Source of the DNA: an uncultured Methanosarcinales archaeon
GTDB taxonomy: Archaea; Nanobdellota; Nanobdellia; Woesearchaeales; JAGWAF01
DNA: 64,000 bases
Direction of reading: 5' to 3'
Assembly: GCA_964359785.1 (NCBI GenBank)
Contig: CAYHWL010000001.1
Location: 2,422-66,421, forward strand
Shown: one piece after another, positions 9,476 to 61,159 of the stretch
How the letters are laid out: each line of letters begins with the position of its first letter
Position numbering within the stretch: position 1 is the first letter of the stretch
Notes under the pieces: model-generated
Databases searched by the model: none
What the model saw: only the letters and a program-made list of their open reading frames with translations
Told to the model about the DNA's origin: nothing
Program-made: the position numbers and the translations under genes

Positions 9476-10402
9476 ATGCGTAGACATGCGATTCAATTGG
9501 CGAAGAATACTCTGGTGGTCTCTCTTCCTTCGGATTGGGTGAAGCAAAACGGCATCAAGAAAGGGGATTCCTTGAATATCGAGAGCAAAGGGAATCAGTT
9601 GATAATCGCTGGAGAGGGAAAAAAGGCGGTGACAAGCGTCCTGCTAGACACCAAAGGTTTGAATGAACGGAGCCTGCGATGGGCATTCTCCTCTCTGCAA
9701 AAACAAGGTGTTGATGAGATTGAGGTCAGACCTATCTCTCCATTGATAATCAAGCTCTCTCAAGAGATCGTGAGGGATCTCTTTGTCGGGTTTGCGATTG
9801 TGTCGCAAAAAGACAACTCTCTTCTGATCCGCAAGATCTCAAAGGACGCGGTGGATCAGTTCGGCGCCATCATGCGTAGGGCTTTTCTTGTCACTGTGTC
9901 TCTTGCCGAAGGGTTCGCTGATGCGCTTGAACGTGGGGATTTCGAAGAAGCCAGATCTCTGGGATATCTAGAGAAGACGAATAATCAGTTGACGAATTTC
10001 TGTCAGCGATTGATCAATCGGGGTGAAGCTGGTGTTGGATATTCTTCATTCTATTATGTCATTCTCTGGAACATGGAGAAGATAGCTGACGAATACAAAG
10101 CCATGAGTCTCCTCTTGCCAAAAAAGCCAAATATCAGTCCAGGTATGGCTAAGTCCCAAAAGGGGGTTGCAGCGCTGGTAAGGGGGTATTATGATGTTTT
10201 TTATGAAGGGGATGCAAGACAGCTCGGTTTGCTTTCTGAGAGGAAAGCGGCCCTGGAGCAGTCACTTCTCCTTCTGCTGGAGAGGCAGGACAAGACACAG
10301 AGATTGCTTGCGCATCATCTTCTTGATATTGTCTCAAGACTGCAGGATTTCTCCGCCAGTTTCATGACGGTTCGTGGTCTTTTTCAAGTTCAAGAGCTAT
10401 GA
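9476..10402 (+). CDS. phoU: archaeal PhoU-family regulator with an N-terminal SpoVT/AbrB swapped-hairpin domain
   Basis: The N-terminus LAKNTLVVSLPSDWVKQNGIKKGDSLNIE is AbrB-like. The central and C-terminal helices resemble the PhoU domain (…NMEKIADEYKAM…). Confidence 0.6.
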   Translation: MRRHAIQLAKNTLVVSLPSDWVKQNGIKKGDSLNIESKGNQLIIAGEGKKAVTSVLLDTKGLNERSLRWAFSSLQKQGVDEIEVRPISPLIIKLSQEIVRDLFVGFAIVSQKDNSLLIRKISKDAVDQFGAIMRRAFLVTVSLAEGFADALERGDFEEARSLGYLEKTNNQLTNFCQRLINRGEAGVGYSSFYYVILWNMEKIADEYKAMSLLLPKKPNISPGMAKSQKGVAALVRGYYDVFYEGDARQLGLLSERKAALEQSLLLLLERQDKTQRLLAHHLLDIVSRLQDFSASFMTVRGLFQVQEL

Positions 10403-14214: not shown

Positions 14215-15255
14215 TTAGTATATCTCCGGACAGCTTTTCCTGATGTATTCCAGTGACATGGTGGATAATTTGCTTATGTCTCCTGTGATATTGGTGGCGT
14301 CAGTGGCGACGCGCGCATGCCAAGCGAGTGTTTGCAGTGCGTTCACAGGCATGTCATAGTTCATGCCGCATAGATCTTTGTTATTGAATGATTCTGCTCG
14401 CATGGAATAGATATCTGCAAGTGATGCCAGCCGGATATACGCTTCTCTCATGTTGCATGCGTATTGTTTGAAATCTTCGGTGAATATCGCGGCCAGCAGA
14501 TCTCCATCGCTTGCGAATTGTCGGTTTCCTGCCGCGTTCCAGTTGCCGTATTTGTCTTTTGCGAACCAGTATACCGCCTTATGGTCCATATCTATATTGA
14601 GACAGCTGTAATCCTGTCCTTCAAGGGTTGCCATGGTGGGGATATCCTTTGTGCATCCGCCTTGTCCTTGCAACAAGAAGAACACCAGCCTCAATTTTCC
14701 ACCGTCATTGCGTATGTTCTTGGCTCGGTTTACGGCGTCAAGTCCCGTGGCGTTGGCTCTGTTGATGTTGTCTGGGATCATAGATAGTATCCTTCGTATT
14801 TCTGGTGTCAATACTGGTACGGCCATGACGTATTTCACACGTTGATTGGTGGCTATCAAGAAATTCGTCACGCGGAATGGCGCGGCCCAATCGACTGAAT
14901 AGAGCACCATGTTTGGTCCTGTGATTGTTTTGGGCCCAAAGATCAAGGTATCCCCAAACTCCTTTGTTATCGACCCGATGCGGTATCTGCAATCACAGTC
15001 TTCGCAGGAGAAATCGACATCGAGTTCTGGGAATTCGATGAGTTGCGCTGTCCCTTTGGCGGTCTGGGCTCCAGCGGCGATTGCGGAGAGGTCAGATATC
15101 AGGCTCTCTGCGCTTGATTGCTCACTTGCGGTTTTTTGTTTTTGTATGAATCCAAAGAAGGTGATTAGTATTATTCCCCCTGCGATCAGGATAAATACCC
15201 AGTTGATGGGTACTTCTAATTGCCCGGCTCGGTTATTCATTGTTCTTCTTGCCAT
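14215..15255 (-). CDS. pilin-like protein (MARRTMNNRAGQLEVPINWVFILIAGGIILITFF)
   Basis: RAG|Q followed by a hydrophobic helix. 346 aa, Cys-containing extracellular part. Confidence 0.55.
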   Translation of the reverse strand: MARRTMNNRAGQLEVPINWVFILIAGGIILITFFGFIQKQKTASEQSSAESLISDLSAIAAGAQTAKGTAQLIEFPELDVDFSCEDCDCRYRIGSITKEFGDTLIFGPKTITGPNMVLYSVDWAAPFRVTNFLIATNQRVKYVMAVPVLTPEIRRILSMIPDNINRANATGLDAVNRAKNIRNDGGKLRLVFFLLQGQGGCTKDIPTMATLEGQDYSCLNIDMDHKAVYWFAKDKYGNWNAAGNRQFASDGDLLAAIFTEDFKQYACNMREAYIRLASLADIYSMRAESFNNKDLCGMNYDMPVNALQTLAWHARVATDATNITGDISKLSTMSLEYIRKSCPEIY

Positions 15256-38155: not shown

Positions 38156-39691
38156 CTAGATCACCTTGATGTTGCGCAGGAACGCGAGGTCTGTTGAGTA
38201 TAGGTTTCTGATGTCTTTGATTCCCATGTTGAACATGCCGATCCGGTCTATGCCAAGTCCCCATGCGATTACTGGCGCGTCTACTCCCAGTGGTTTGGTG
38301 AGTTCTGGGCGGAATATGCCTGCTCCTCCAAGTTCTATCCATCCTAGTTCTGGATGTTTTGCGAAGAGCTCGCAGCTTGGTTCCGTGAATGGGAAATATC
38401 CTGGTTTGATCCGGATATGGTCTGTCTTGGCGAATTCTTTTGCGAATTCCAACAGCAGTCCTTTTAGGTGTCGGAAGTTCAATCCTTCCTCTACGATGAT
38501 TCCTTCTGTCTGGAAGAAATCAGGCAGATGTGTGGCGTCGATCACGTCATATCTGAAATTCTTTGCGATAGCGAAATATTTTCCAGGGATCTTCAGATCC
38601 TTGCTGGCCAATTTCCGGGCGGAACAAGCGGTGGTCTGCGTCCGCAATAATAGTCTTTTTGTCCGCTCTACATCGAAGTTGTATCGCCATCCCTTGCTTC
38701 CCGTGTCTGCTCCATTCTCATGTGCGGCTTTCACTTTCCGCAATACTGCTTCATCGACTTCTCCATGGGTTGGCTCTTTGATATAATATGCTTGATGGAT
38801 GTCTCGCGCTGAATGGAATTGCGGCATGTATAGCGCATCCATGTCCCAGAAATCTGTTTCCACAAGTGGTCCGCCTATCTCCGCGAAGCCCATGGATACG
38901 AATCTTTTGCGGACTTCATCCAGGAATGCCCTGTAATGATGTTTCCTTCCGATGTGGAAGGGTTTGCTTGGTATTTTCACGTCGTAGCTGCGGAAGGCTT
39001 TGCCTTTCCATGAACCTTGGGCTAGCATCTCTGGTGTGAGGGTGTCGATCACGTCCCCTACTTTGATCCCGCTTTCTATTGCTTGCTTGCCAAGGCCGCT
39101 TAATTGGAATGAGATCGTCTTTACTATCTTGGTCTTGATCATCTGTTTGCGCTTGCGTAACATCTCATAAGCATGTTTTTCTTGGGGCTCAAGGCTGGCT
39201 AGATCGATCTCTTTTGATTTGCTTAATTTTTTCAGGAATGCGTCTTCGAGCCTCTCTTTGGATAATGCGTCACGTCCTTGATTTGTGAGTTCGATCCTTT
39301 TGTCAGGTAAGAAGTTTATCAGCACAGCTCCTCGGAGTACGCCAAGTCCTGCTTGTATCTCTTGGACATCCATCCCAGTGGATTTCGCCACATCCGCTAT
39401 GCTTTTTGCCTTGTCAGCAAGCGCCTGGATTATCACGCGTTCAGGAAGGCCTCGATTGGCGTATTTCTCTCCATTGACATCCAAAAGGACAAACTCCGCA
39501 AGGTCTGTCTTGGTGCAGATGATCCCCTTTGCTTCTAGCCACTGGATGGCGCGGTAGCATTCGGCTTCCTGCATTCCGCTTGCGTCAATTATCTGTGTTA
39601 GTGTATGTTTGGTGGACAGCAGCGGAAATATCGCTCTCTCTAGAGGATGAAGGCTCGATACTAGCTCCTTTATGTCCATAATGACTCCCAA
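38156..39691 (-). CDS. pheS: phenylalanyl-tRNA synthetase alpha subunit (archaeal type)
   Basis: Class II aaRS motif 3 near the C-terminus (…GAGIFRPEL…WGLGIDRI). Confidence 0.9.
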   Translation of the reverse strand: MGVIMDIKELVSSLHPLERAIFPLLSTKHTLTQIIDASGMQEAECYRAIQWLEAKGIICTKTDLAEFVLLDVNGEKYANRGLPERVIIQALADKAKSIADVAKSTGMDVQEIQAGLGVLRGAVLINFLPDKRIELTNQGRDALSKERLEDAFLKKLSKSKEIDLASLEPQEKHAYEMLRKRKQMIKTKIVKTISFQLSGLGKQAIESGIKVGDVIDTLTPEMLAQGSWKGKAFRSYDVKIPSKPFHIGRKHHYRAFLDEVRKRFVSMGFAEIGGPLVETDFWDMDALYMPQFHSARDIHQAYYIKEPTHGEVDEAVLRKVKAAHENGADTGSKGWRYNFDVERTKRLLLRTQTTACSARKLASKDLKIPGKYFAIAKNFRYDVIDATHLPDFFQTEGIIVEEGLNFRHLKGLLLEFAKEFAKTDHIRIKPGYFPFTEPSCELFAKHPELGWIELGGAGIFRPELTKPLGVDAPVIAWGLGIDRIGMFNMGIKDIRNLYSTDLAFLRNIKVI

Positions 39692-39821
39692 GAGATGGTG
39701 TCCTTAAAAATCTTTAGAAAAAAAGTAACCATTCAGTGTTCTGATACTGTTCGTCGATAATTGATTTATATTCTGTAGTGGCGATATCTTTATATCCTAG
39801 TGTAGTTACATTGTAACTACA

Positions 39822-39959
39822 ATGAAATCGTTGATCGAAATGAAAATGAATGGATTTGAGGCCATTGAGAAAATCGCTCAAGCTGGCGGAAATAGTGCTC
39901 GGGTCTATGTGCCTAAGCATTGGCAAGGGAAAAAAGTCAAAGTGGTGTTGATAGAATGA
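39822..39959 (+). CDS. 45-aa transposon-associated small protein (DUF2080-like, AbrB/SpoVT-like hairpin)
   Basis: Translation MKSLIEMKMNGFEAIEKIAQAGGNSARVYVPKHWQGKKVKVVLIE. Its stop overlaps the transposase ATG (ATGA). Confidence 0.5.
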   Translation: MKSLIEMKMNGFEAIEKIAQAGGNSARVYVPKHWQGKKVKVVLIE

Positions 39960-41311
39960 ACACAACTGAAGAAGGACTTCGCAAAAGGATTCGCGAGTTG
40001 GAGCGTGAGCTCCAACAAACAAAGGAGGAGAAGCAGCGTATTGAGGATGCGAAAAAGAAAATTGAGAAAGAGTTTGAAGAGTTCCGAGCAAAATATGCAT
40101 GTACTGTAGACAATCTGAAGATTGCATTGAAGATTAAGGGCGATGTTTCAAATTCTGCAGAACCTGGTGCAAGAAAAGGGCATGTTGGTCATGGGCGTAA
40201 AGCGCCGGAGCATGTTGACAAGAATGAGGAGATTCGACTTGATAATTGTCCTTATTGTAAGACTCACCTTCGAGGAAAAACTATCAGCACGCGTCATCGT
40301 ATTGTCACGACGATAAAAATCATCAATCCTGCACAAGTCATCCGTTATTTGCTTCATCGCAAGTGGTGTCCGACTTGTGAGAAACTGGTAGAACCCGAAG
40401 TGCCAGGTGTGCTTCCAAATGCGCGATTCAGCCTAAATATCATGCTTTTAGTCATGTATTTGCATCTGGCACTGCGTGTGCCTGGCGCGAAGGTGCGCGA
40501 ATATTTTCAGACTGTGCACAATGTCAATATCAGCACGGGTGAGATCCCGCACATGCTCACGCAACTCGCACGAGAATACGGAGACCATTACGCCAGTTTA
40601 GAAAAACTCGTGCGAGCTGCACGAGTCAAACACACTGATAGTACAAGTTGGCGCATAAGCGGTAAAAACTATGCCGCATGGGTATTTGTCATTCAAGGAG
40701 TCGTGCTCTACAAAATCAGTAAAAGTACAAGTCACAAACTACCACTCAAAGTGCTTGGCAGAATCGGCAAAAACATCACACTTGTCGTAGATAGACACTC
40801 TGCATTCCGCACCCTCGCACAAAAAGCAGGATATCTACTCCAATTATGCTGGTCACACATACTCCAAGACAGCAAGGAACTAGCCAAAAATTTCGGCGCC
40901 GAAGGACGCTACGTCCACCGCCACCTCAAAGAAATCTACGCACAAGCCAAATCCCTAAACCACCAAGCCACACAAGAACAAGTAGACGCACTCAAATGCG
41001 AAATACTCCAACTCACCTACAGACATTACAAAAGCCACGCCATACGCCGATTCGTCGACAATCTCGCATACCGCGACCTAGACAACCTATTCCGATTCAC
41101 AACAGACCCCACAATCGACCCGACCAACAACATAAGCGAAAGAGAACTACGACACTTAGTCATGATACGACGCATCAGCCACGGCAGCAGAAGCCGCCGC
41201 GGCGCCAATGCCATGACCCAACTTCTAAGCATCATTCAAACACTACGACTAAACCAACAAAACCCCCTCGAAGGACTACAAAACATACTCAACCCCCTAT
41301 CAATCAACTGA
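39956..41311 (+). CDS. IS66-family transposase (TnpC-like)
   Basis: N-terminal coiled coil (ELERELQQTKEEKQRIEDAKKKIEKEFEE). Zinc finger CPYCKTH…CPTCEKL. DDE core. IS66-type C-terminus NNISERELRHLVMIRRISHGSRSRRGANAMTQLLSIIQT. Confidence 0.85.
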   Translation: MNTTEEGLRKRIRELERELQQTKEEKQRIEDAKKKIEKEFEEFRAKYACTVDNLKIALKIKGDVSNSAEPGARKGHVGHGRKAPEHVDKNEEIRLDNCPYCKTHLRGKTISTRHRIVTTIKIINPAQVIRYLLHRKWCPTCEKLVEPEVPGVLPNARFSLNIMLLVMYLHLALRVPGAKVREYFQTVHNVNISTGEIPHMLTQLAREYGDHYASLEKLVRAARVKHTDSTSWRISGKNYAAWVFVIQGVVLYKISKSTSHKLPLKVLGRIGKNITLVVDRHSAFRTLAQKAGYLLQLCWSHILQDSKELAKNFGAEGRYVHRHLKEIYAQAKSLNHQATQEQVDALKCEILQLTYRHYKSHAIRRFVDNLAYRDLDNLFRFTTDPTIDPTNNISERELRHLVMIRRISHGSRSRRGANAMTQLLSIIQTLRLNQQNPLEGLQNILNPLSIN

Positions 41312-41344
41312 ACGATTACGAAAAAAAGATGATAAAAGAAAAAA

Positions 41345-42151
41345 TTACTTTCCAATTGGTTTCATGCCTTTCCATGCGGTGTCAAAGAGGCTCTCTACCG
41401 CGCTGGCGAAGAATGGCGTGTTGACCCAGACTCCTATGTCATAGATTGGGTGCACGTCCTTGTCATCAAGGACCATGAATACCATCTGTTTGCCATCGAC
41501 TATGGCGAAGCGTGCTCGGCTGTCGGTCTCGCGGATCTCTGCATATGGCGCGATTTCGCTCACAGCCGCCCTGGTGTCTTTGTTGCTAGGTGAGGCGATC
41601 CTGATTTTGACCCCTTTCTTTTTGAGTTTCTCAAACACGGGTTTCAAGGAATCCGCTTTTCGGATGAGTCCTTGGGCAGTCGTCATCAGTGTGACTGATT
41701 TCTCCGCATTTTTGATCGCGAGTTCAAGATGCGCGTAAAGGTTCTGTCTTCCTCGCAGTGATCCTGACAGTTCGGTAGGGTCGATCATCTCGACGCCTTG
41801 ATTGTGCAATGCGCTTAATTCCTCTAAGACATCTGTGCTTTTTAGGTCTTCAAGCCTTCGCACTCGCTCTTCGGCTTCCACTTTGGTGTTTTTCTTGACA
41901 CGTTCAACCACTTCAGTGGGTGCGACTGCGATATACTTGATAGGTTTTCCAAGTTTCATGACGACATATCCACGTTTCTCTAATGATTCAAGGACATCGT
42001 ATGCTCGACTTCTTGGCACGTCGGCCAAGTCAGATAGTTCTCCTGCGGTCGCGACACCACGTGACAGCAACGCGGCCCATATTTTCACTTCGTATAGGTT
42101 CAAATTGAAGAGCCTTCGCAATTTCGATAAGAATTCGTCTTTTACGAGCAT
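41345..42151 (-). CDS. TrmB family transcriptional regulator
   Basis: N-terminal wHTH (LYEVKIWAALLSRGVATAGELSDLADVPRSRAYDVLESLEKRGYV) plus a C-terminal TrmB domain. It is a paralog of 60279..61058. Confidence 0.85.
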   Translation of the reverse strand: MLVKDEFLSKLRRLFNLNLYEVKIWAALLSRGVATAGELSDLADVPRSRAYDVLESLEKRGYVVMKLGKPIKYIAVAPTEVVERVKKNTKVEAEERVRRLEDLKSTDVLEELSALHNQGVEMIDPTELSGSLRGRQNLYAHLELAIKNAEKSVTLMTTAQGLIRKADSLKPVFEKLKKKGVKIRIASPSNKDTRAAVSEIAPYAEIRETDSRARFAIVDGKQMVFMVLDDKDVHPIYDIGVWVNTPFFASAVESLFDTAWKGMKPIGK

Positions 42152-61058: not shown

Positions 61059-61159
61059 GATTTTTCCTCCATTTGTGGGCTGTCGTGGGGAAAGGCGAAT
61101 AGTATATAAATATGAGCGAAAGTTGTTATTAGAGAGTAGCAAAAACATCATAAGCAATG

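Follow-up and report, generated by a model that had tools for sequence, protein, structure and literature searches.

A steep A+C skew anchored at the right end of an IS66-family insertion sequence from a woesearchaeal genome and its relatives: a possible footprint of element copying or repair

A 64,000-nucleotide stretch of contig CAYHWL010000001.1 (assembly GCA_964359785.1), from an uncultured archaeon placed in the Woesearchaeales, was analyzed over its full length and is referred to here as the window. It carries a complete insertion sequence (IS) of the IS66 family, whose transposase gene is strongly enriched in A and C on the coding strand throughout its 3′ part (below, the tail, with the preceding part called the head). 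The skewed segment reaches the right end of the IS, as the right inverted repeat includes the stop codon (41309-41311). The ends of the IS were set from identical IS copies with different flanks in related loci. The features of the locus, with their positions in the window, are as follows.

39717..39724: left copy of the target-site duplication, GAAAAAAA, identical to the octamer at 41320-41327
39725..41319, + strand: complete IS66-family IS, 1595 bp, delimited by end comparison of copies
39725..39744, + strand: left inverted repeat, GTAACCATTCAGTGTTCTGA, matching the right end in reverse complement, GTAATCGTTCAGTTGATTGA
39822..39959, + strand: DUF2080 transposase-associated open reading frame (ORF), 45 aa (PF09853, E = 2e-5; NCBIfam NF033496, 57.6 bits, cut-off 22)
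39956..41311, + strand: IS66-family DDE transposase gene, 451 aa (PF03050, NF033517)
40562..40801, + strand: intermediate-skew zone, codons 203-282, third positions 71% A/C, from the maximum-likelihood fit described below
40802..41311, + strand: extreme-skew zone, codons 283-451, third positions 93% A/C, 3% G and 4% T, from the same fit
40846..41424, + strand: alternative-frame ORF of 192 aa (+2 frame), not a gene but a by-product of T-poor third positions
41300..41319, - strand: right inverted repeat, containing the transposase stop codon, from the sequence and the ends of relatives
41320..41327: right copy of the target-site duplication, GAAAAAAA, a perfect 8-bp match directly outside the inverted repeat

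The transposase matches PF03050 (DDE_Tnp_IS66) over residues 159-418 with an E value of 1.5e-26 and the NCBIfam equivalog NF033517 with 210.9 bits, above the cut-off of 180. It has 775 homologues, the closest named one being a Woesearchaeota/Nanoarchaeota IS66 transposase, and the named relatives are from metagenome-assembled genomes (MAGs) of Woesearchaeota/Nanoarchaeota. The tnpA and tnpB genes that lie upstream of tnpC in canonical IS66 elements are absent, and just the 45-aa DUF2080 ORF precedes the transposase gene, an arrangement that places the element with the single-transposase IS66-like groups. The DUF2080 ORF is kept in relatives, and its stop codon overlaps the transposase start codon (ATGA). 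The terminal inverted repeats, GTAACCATTCAGTG and GTAATCGTTCAGTT, start with GTAA, as is typical of IS66 inverted repeats, and match each other at 11 of the first 13 bases and at 14 of 20 overall. The terminal pattern derived from the loci of relatives is GTAA...TTCAG... at the left end and its complement at the right, and the pattern without mismatch occurs only at the two IS ends.

From position 40790 to the stop codon at 41311, the base fractions of the coding strand are A.362, C.341, G.149, and T.148 (A+C 0.70), T falls to.135 over 40861-41311, and 157 of the 169 third positions in codons 283-451 (93%) are A or C. These values agree with an earlier note on this DNA, which had described about 70% A+C from 40790 to the stop codon, about 14% T over 40861..41311, and codons ending almost only in A or C. 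The sliding-window skew check proposed in the same note was run, and the 3′ part of the transposase gene is the compositional extreme of the 64 kb. In 300-bp windows, A+C averages 0.464 over the whole 64 kb (sd 0.045) and peaks at 0.72 at 40851; the 3′ part of this gene accounts for all of the 14 top windows (0.59-0.72, starts 40551-41201), and the next-highest one (0.59) is at 61151. In the tail, GC skew drops to about -0.4 and AT skew climbs to about +0.5. The single abrupt shift described in the note resolves into two steps. A two-change-point maximum-likelihood fit on third positions places them at codon 203 (nt 40562) and codon 283 (nt 40802), third-position A/C being 37% in codons 1-202 and increasing to 71% and then 93%. 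The border was said to lie inside the gene and not at the IS edge, which is true of the two inner steps; the other border of the skewed segment is the IS edge itself (41319). In codons 300-451, third positions are A.41, C.53, G.03, and T.04, compared with 48% A/C in codons 1-290. The 93% A/C of the tail has a binomial probability of 6e-28 against the host mean and of 8e-11 against 0.733, the most extreme 150-codon window among the host genes in the 64 kb.

A second copy of the IS, 99.65% identical over 1423 nt, is present in an independent contig from Hainich groundwater (L119; related loci are designated by L numbers) with an unrelated right flank, and the similarity breaks off exactly past ...GATTAC. 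Since a 99.65% identical copy lies in another context in an independent metagenome, an artefact and a chimera confined to a single copy are excluded. Further identical IS pairs with different flanks occur among the relatives, 8-bp target duplications are also present in L078 and L060/L061, and no further copy of the IS was found within the 64-kb window. Judging from the target duplication, the inverted repeats, and the 99.65% identical copy elsewhere, the element is mobile. The same skew is carried by sequences from independent projects (JGI, ENA, Logan, and GenBank MAGs). The closest other relatives, L117 and L118, have 81% nucleotide identity to the window copy and 93-95% A/C in their last 150 third positions, and the divergence from both is even along the whole gene.

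A total of 116 related loci were retrieved, and their codons were mapped onto the window gene. Among the 103 near-full-length relatives, tail third-position A/C varies continuously from 0.39 to 0.95, with 24 relatives at 0.75 or higher, one group at about 0.45-0.50, and a broad group at 0.65-0.95. A 3′-anchored skew is present in about half of the approximately 100 related elements from DPANN archaea. In every skewed element, the bias grows toward the 3′ end in steps, and its onset varies, with single change points from codon ~140 to codon ~345. The bias is restricted to the same 3′ region in the relatives, and the possibility raised in the earlier note that they are biased along their entire length is not borne out. 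The gradient is absent in ISH10 and in the IS66 members of E. coli, Vibrio, and Nostoc, and it is therefore not a property of the whole IS66 family. A tree of the relatives was built only from residues 31-290, the unskewed part of the protein. In this tree, strongly skewed elements form separate branches beside unskewed ones: L080; L084/L115; L106; L114; L011; L025/L003; and the clade of the window element. By protein identity, the tails of skewed elements are nearest to those of their unskewed neighbours and not to one another, which together with the separate branches indicates that the skew originated repeatedly and did not spread as a recombining module. Such a module is ruled out by the head-based tree, the nearest neighbours of the tails, and the uniform divergence along the gene. 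The sharpest step, at codons 281-287 (window ~40796-40814), lies just after a conserved VVDR motif and recurs in at least four separate lineages, being homologous in L117, L118, L011, L025, and L080. Neither a terminal-repeat-like copy nor an RNA family was found near the step at codon 281.

The nature of the force can be read from silent sites. At fourfold degenerate sites of the window element, L011, and L025, head identity is 0.26-0.28, compared with a chance expectation of 0.23-0.27, so that these sites are saturated. The three tails are each at least 90% A/C and as alike as composition alone predicts, and A and C are exchanged in 48 of the 58 differences between them. Saturation of silent sites that are nevertheless at least 90% A/C indicates that the force is ongoing and purely compositional, without site-specific constraint, and the free choice between A and C rules out that a particular sequence element, a second reading frame, or a structured RNA is being maintained. 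A one-off hypermutation event was rejected because the silent sites are saturated but still skewed. A structured RNA in the 3′ end of the IS (e.g., omega-RNA-like) was also rejected, since the tail has no Rfam match at E ≤ 1 and no silent-site conservation; known RNA families and tRNAs were searched for, and none were found. The analysis thus establishes that the skew exists, persists, recurs in separate lineages, and is anchored at the right end, and it excludes explanations from the alternative ORF, codon usage, or RNA structure.

A skew index independent of G+C content was calculated from third positions as S = A/(A+G) + C/(C+T) - 1. In the tail, A/(A+G) is 0.94 and C/(C+T) is 0.93 (S = +0.87), so that G and T are both depleted, and the silent-site depletion of the two bases holds in AT-rich as well as GC-richer relatives. 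Along the gene, S takes the following values.

Window element: codons 1-105, -0.36; codons 106-200, -0.18; codons 201-299, +0.49; codons 300-451, +0.87
L011: codons 1-105, -0.48; codons 106-200, -0.37; codons 201-299, +0.16; codons 300-451, +0.87
Mean of the skewed group: codons 1-105, -0.15; codons 106-200, +0.05; codons 201-299, +0.25; codons 300-451, +0.65
Mean of the unskewed group: codons 1-105, +0.09; codons 106-200, 0; codons 201-299, -0.07; codons 300-451, -0.06

The negative correlation between left and tail skew persists when phylogenetically independent contrasts are used (r = -0.49, p = 7e-7), 60 of the 92 being opposite in sign. In the most skewed elements, the sign of S flips near the centre of the IS, which is expected of a two-ended DNA process and not of a property of the mRNA. 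The top strand of the host chromosome has an S of -0.18, pooled over 17,961 codons in the 64-kb window, and the IS tail has the same amino/keto signature as the host replication skew with the opposite local sign. Third-position A+C is about 0.37-0.53 in window genes on the + strand (e.g., 9476-10402) and about 0.48-0.68 in those on the - strand (e.g., 14215-15255), and most window genes are located on the A+C-rich strand.

A continuing strand-asymmetric process that acts on the DNA of the element, not on the protein, on codon choice, or on the RNA, and that is tied to the right end of the IS is the best-supported reading of these data, with a probability of roughly one-half. The opposite skew of the 5′ part points to a process of this type anchored at the right end. 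The force is most likely non-adaptive, and the skew is probably a footprint of element copying or repair. Strand-specific deamination had been listed in the earlier note as a possible cause; it belongs to the leading class of explanation, but as an ongoing process of lineages, seen in many relatives, and not as an event in the history of a single copy. We infer a tie to transposition intermediates and to the chemistry outlined here. The coding strand, whose 3′ end is at the right terminus, would be driven to A and C wherever the protein permits. In each round of transposition or linked recombinational repair, the strand that has the nearer terminus as its 5′ end would be left single-stranded or newly made. 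When C and A are deaminated in single-stranded DNA, T and G accumulate on the exposed strand, as in the mitochondrial heavy strand and in bacterial replication skew, and by this first route the exposed strand of the IS would gain G and T and its partner A and C. By a second route, composition would shift in the same direction if mismatch processing in the archaeon cut G/T, G/G, and T/T pairs and spared A/C, A/A, and C/C pairs. The EndoMS/NucS nuclease of Archaea cuts G/T, G/G, and T/T but not A/C, A/A, or C/C (PMC4838380). If heteroduplex or newly made DNA were always fixed to one strand, for example when a 3′ tail invades another IS copy, a system of the EndoMS/NucS type would favor A and C on that strand and would yield selection-like kinetics. 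The sign of the skew would be compatible with a lagging-strand template at a fork that moves in from the end, as in replicative or copy-out transposition, and with a strand made inward from the 3′-OH of the flank and left unpaired, as in gap repair resembling synthesis-dependent strand annealing (SDSA) or break-induced replication (BIR). The 5′-to-3′ resection of an excised linear element does not fit, since it predicts the wrong sign. A more specific and tentative proposal is that transposition or linked repair may write strand-coordinated changes inward from the ends, by way of a long-lived single strand or of EndoMS/NucS-type processing of keto mismatches in strand-fixed heteroduplex, in which case the skew gradient would be a heritable record of how, and how actively, the element transposes.

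Several observations weigh against the DNA-level process. The mirrored skew at the left is smaller and fails to increase as the left terminus is approached: third-position S of the DUF2080 ORF is -0.14 in skewed and -0.08 in unskewed lineages, and the non-coding sequence of the left end is almost the same in both. The skew of the host flanks does not significantly predict the skew of the IS (rho 0.30, p = 0.13), although these flanks are too short to provide a strong test. The recurrent step at codons 281-287 would not obviously arise from a purely distance-dependent stochastic process, and none of the proposed DNA mechanisms accounts for it. A rate bias of at least 15-fold within about 500 bp is large for spontaneous chemistry. 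To our knowledge, the transposition pathway of IS66 has not been established and no intermediate has been observed, and a search for literature on the IS66 mechanism returned nothing relevant. The evidence from substitution rates is mixed. They were estimated with two-state models on clade trees and expressed as tail:head ratios, a test that is blurred by site and lineage heterogeneity. In the clade of the window element, the ratios are 0.63 for A>G, 1.24 for G>A, 0.64 for C>T, and 2.3 for T>C, and pairwise estimates agree; in an unskewed control clade, all ratios are 0.66-0.93, with T>C at 0.68. The lowered A>G and C>T rates (0.63-0.64), with G>A barely raised, form a pattern of selection or biased conversion and not of pure mutation pressure. 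The pyrimidine rates look mutation-like and the purine rates look selection- or conversion-like; the raised T>C rate and a relatively higher transversion flux in the tail count in favor of the DNA-level process. The directional spectrum of non-synonymous changes is confounded by shared ancestry. The differences between the window copy and the L119 copy carry no information on the mutational spectrum because they are clustered: four of the five fall in one tetranucleotide (window 40691-40702, L119:794-805; ATTC versus GCCA, changing Ile-Gln to Ala-Lys), which is a multi-base event or a micro-conversion and not a set of independent point mutations.

The rival that survives best, and is nonetheless unlikely, is selection for a strand poor in G and T, by which the 3′ 500 nt of the mRNA or the 3′-ending DNA strand of an intermediate would be kept unpaired; in a variant, signals rich in T or G would be avoided, for example start codons or the oligo-T terminators of archaea. 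An A+C sequence lacks self-pairing and palindromes, and the RNA of the tail folds half as strongly as an equal-length segment of the head (-67.5 compared with -127 kcal/mol). The purine rates, lowered for A>G and little raised for G>A, fit selection, as do the sharp recurrent border at codons 281-287 and the survival of the skew through saturated divergence. However, the native tail is not less structured than its dinucleotide shuffles (z = -1.7); it is, if anything, more structured, on a very weak structure, and the idea of a tail RNA less structured than its composition dictates is unsupported. Selection would also have to maintain about 150 sites of an IS, each of them weak by itself, and about half of the related and apparently functional elements have no skew, with all intermediate degrees occurring. 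In addition, the opposite skew of the 5′ part is not expected of an mRNA property, and the position of the onset differs among lineages.

Antisense transcription from the right end, possibly with self-reinforcing R-loops formed by a G-rich antisense RNA, could expose the displaced bottom strand to deamination. This explanation appears distinctly improbable. It would give the right sign, the bottom strand being the non-template strand of leftward transcription, and through the feedback it could produce such extreme values, borders that look like steps, and the roughly bimodal distribution among relatives. No conserved TATA-like promoter directed inward was seen by eye at the compared right ends, however, and the flanks differ for each copy, so that transcription reading in from outside would not be heritable with the IS.

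Selection on codon usage, which would tune the tail for fast or deliberately slow translation, is very improbable. Codons ending in A and C are Watson-Crick cognates of G34/U34 tRNAs, which would suit such tuning, but all codon families shift to A- and C-ending codons about equally, and ATA, CTA, and CGA are frequent. Leu codons move from TTR/CTK to CTM in the tail, and first-position A+C increases from 0.53 to 0.68; together with the use of both endings, these changes indicate a pressure on bases and not on the choice of tRNA. The tail also has an index of the codon adaptation type of 0.748, within the host range of 0.706-0.848 (host value 0.78, sd 0.03), and no host gene in the window approaches 93% A/C at third positions.

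It is harder still to credit an overlapping gene that dictates the third positions through the +2 frame. The Pro/Arg/Thr/Gln-rich ORF at 40846..41424 does exist, as the earlier note had pointed out in calling it spurious, with 192 open codons and an ATG at conserved Leu-Cys codons near the step. Against its being a gene, the frame is open only in the window element and L025, 2 of the 94 relatives tested; in the other 92, the number of +2-frame stops is about that predicted from third-position T, so that conservation of the frame is no better than composition dictates. The strongly skewed L011, L061, L040, and L106 have 1-9 stops in this frame, near the same expectation. The ORF also overshoots the IS end by 105 nt and enters the neighbouring gene, its product has no Pfam match, the choice between A and C is not conserved at its first codon positions, and the avoidance of stops requires no avoidance of G. 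A chimeric or recombinant copy with a foreign tail from a strongly skewed genome, or an assembly, engineering, or sequencing artefact, causes which the earlier note had considered and which the composition boundary inside the gene might suggest, has next to no probability, given the intact inverted repeats and perfect 8-bp target duplication, the near-identical copy with a different right flank in an independent assembly, the even divergence from L117 and L118, the skewed tails that are nearest to the unskewed tails of their own neighbours, and the skew that is kept after saturation.

The IS is located among archaeal pheS and pheT, a gene for a TrmB-family regulator, and pelota. It was inserted (39681-39725) about 45 bp upstream of the start of pheS, in the A-rich target GAAAAAAA, and the position indicates that it lies in or adjoins the pheS/pheT promoter region; on the other side, the stop codon of the TrmB-family gene is about 25 bp away. 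The start codon of the DUF2080 ORF is preceded, at a distance of about 25-50 nt, by conserved TATA-like motifs, GATTTATATTC and ATCTTTATATCC (39770-39822), and no Shine-Dalgarno-like sequence was noticed by eye before this ORF. With the ATGA overlap, this layout suggests a transcript that may be leaderless, bicistronic, and translationally coupled. To the right of the second IS copy, the Hainich H52 contig carries a gene of bacterial type with sigma-70 regions 2, 3, and 4 (L119:1486-2751), which could reflect lateral acquisition, an IS in a bacterial genome, or mis-assembly, and several relatives are binned in bacterial MAGs (Patescibacteria, Chryseobacterium, and Vicingus). Several large contigs contain only C-terminal or right-end fragments (L026:3001-3468, L027:1123-1515, L036:1147-1377, and similar ones), which lie internally and were not cut off by a contig edge; ascertainment may account for the apparent surplus of such relics, since the search patterns were sited in the tail. 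Other strongly skewed stretches in the related loci were rejected as candidates, being ordinary membrane-protein or Lys/Glu-rich genes.

The sign of the skew, that is, which strand and which end are affected, constrains the transposition pathway of IS66 elements from sequence alone. It fits replication or repair synthesis directed inward from the flanks and argues against a simple resection of the excised element. If the cause is mutational or driven by repair, the depth of the skew could report how often an IS lineage has moved, and the mobile element would evolve under a mutation regime unlike that of the host chromosome. If transposition writes such a record, the skew of IS66-like elements would be a prokaryotic counterpart, on a mobile element, of mitochondrial strand asymmetry or kataegis. 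In addition, skewed tails breed long spurious ORFs and atypical segments within genuine genes, which mislead gene callers and detectors of horizontal transfer.

In its anatomy, the element is a new member of the single-transposase subgroup of IS66 (ISH10-like and ISBst12-like elements), with which it shares the DDE_Tnp_IS66 domain, the 8-bp duplication, the GTAA repeats, the small DUF2080 ORF upstream, and the CW(S/A)H motif after the second Asp. Unlike canonical IS66 elements, it has no tnpA and tnpB, and it is only 25% identical to ISH10, which has no 3′ skew gradient. In a literature search of incomplete coverage, no insertion sequence was found to have been described with an amino/keto gradient anchored at its end. 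In chemistry, the skew resembles mitochondrial strand asymmetry and chromosomal chirochores, and in geometry, the strand-coordinated clusters known from DNA ends. The amino/keto line of the skew matches the specificity of EndoMS/NucS, which could turn strand-fixed heteroduplex or synthesis into a gain of A and C; a link between this nuclease and transposons has not been described. The kataegis, BIR, and SDSA clusters of yeast and cancer, which arise on long-lived single-stranded DNA, comprise strand-coordinated transitions near DNA ends with a strand switch across the initiating lesion, and changes of this kind would give the antisymmetric pattern of the IS; those clusters are single events, whereas the IS tail has an equilibrium composition kept over saturated divergence. 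Chromosomal chirochores also have an amino/keto skew, with a sign change at a defined point. Compared with its surroundings (S of about -0.18), the IS tail has the opposite sign and a skew about five times as strong (S of about +0.87), and its skew therefore cannot derive from host replication at the site. The light strand of vertebrate mitochondrial DNA is rich in A and C, graded with the time spent single-stranded, and similar to the IS in its silent depletion of G and T on one strand, in the extremes reached, and perhaps in the positional gradient, which in the IS goes by steps. The skew of the IS differs from it in being chromosomal, about 500-750 bp long, anchored at an end, bordered by steps, and variable between sister lineages.

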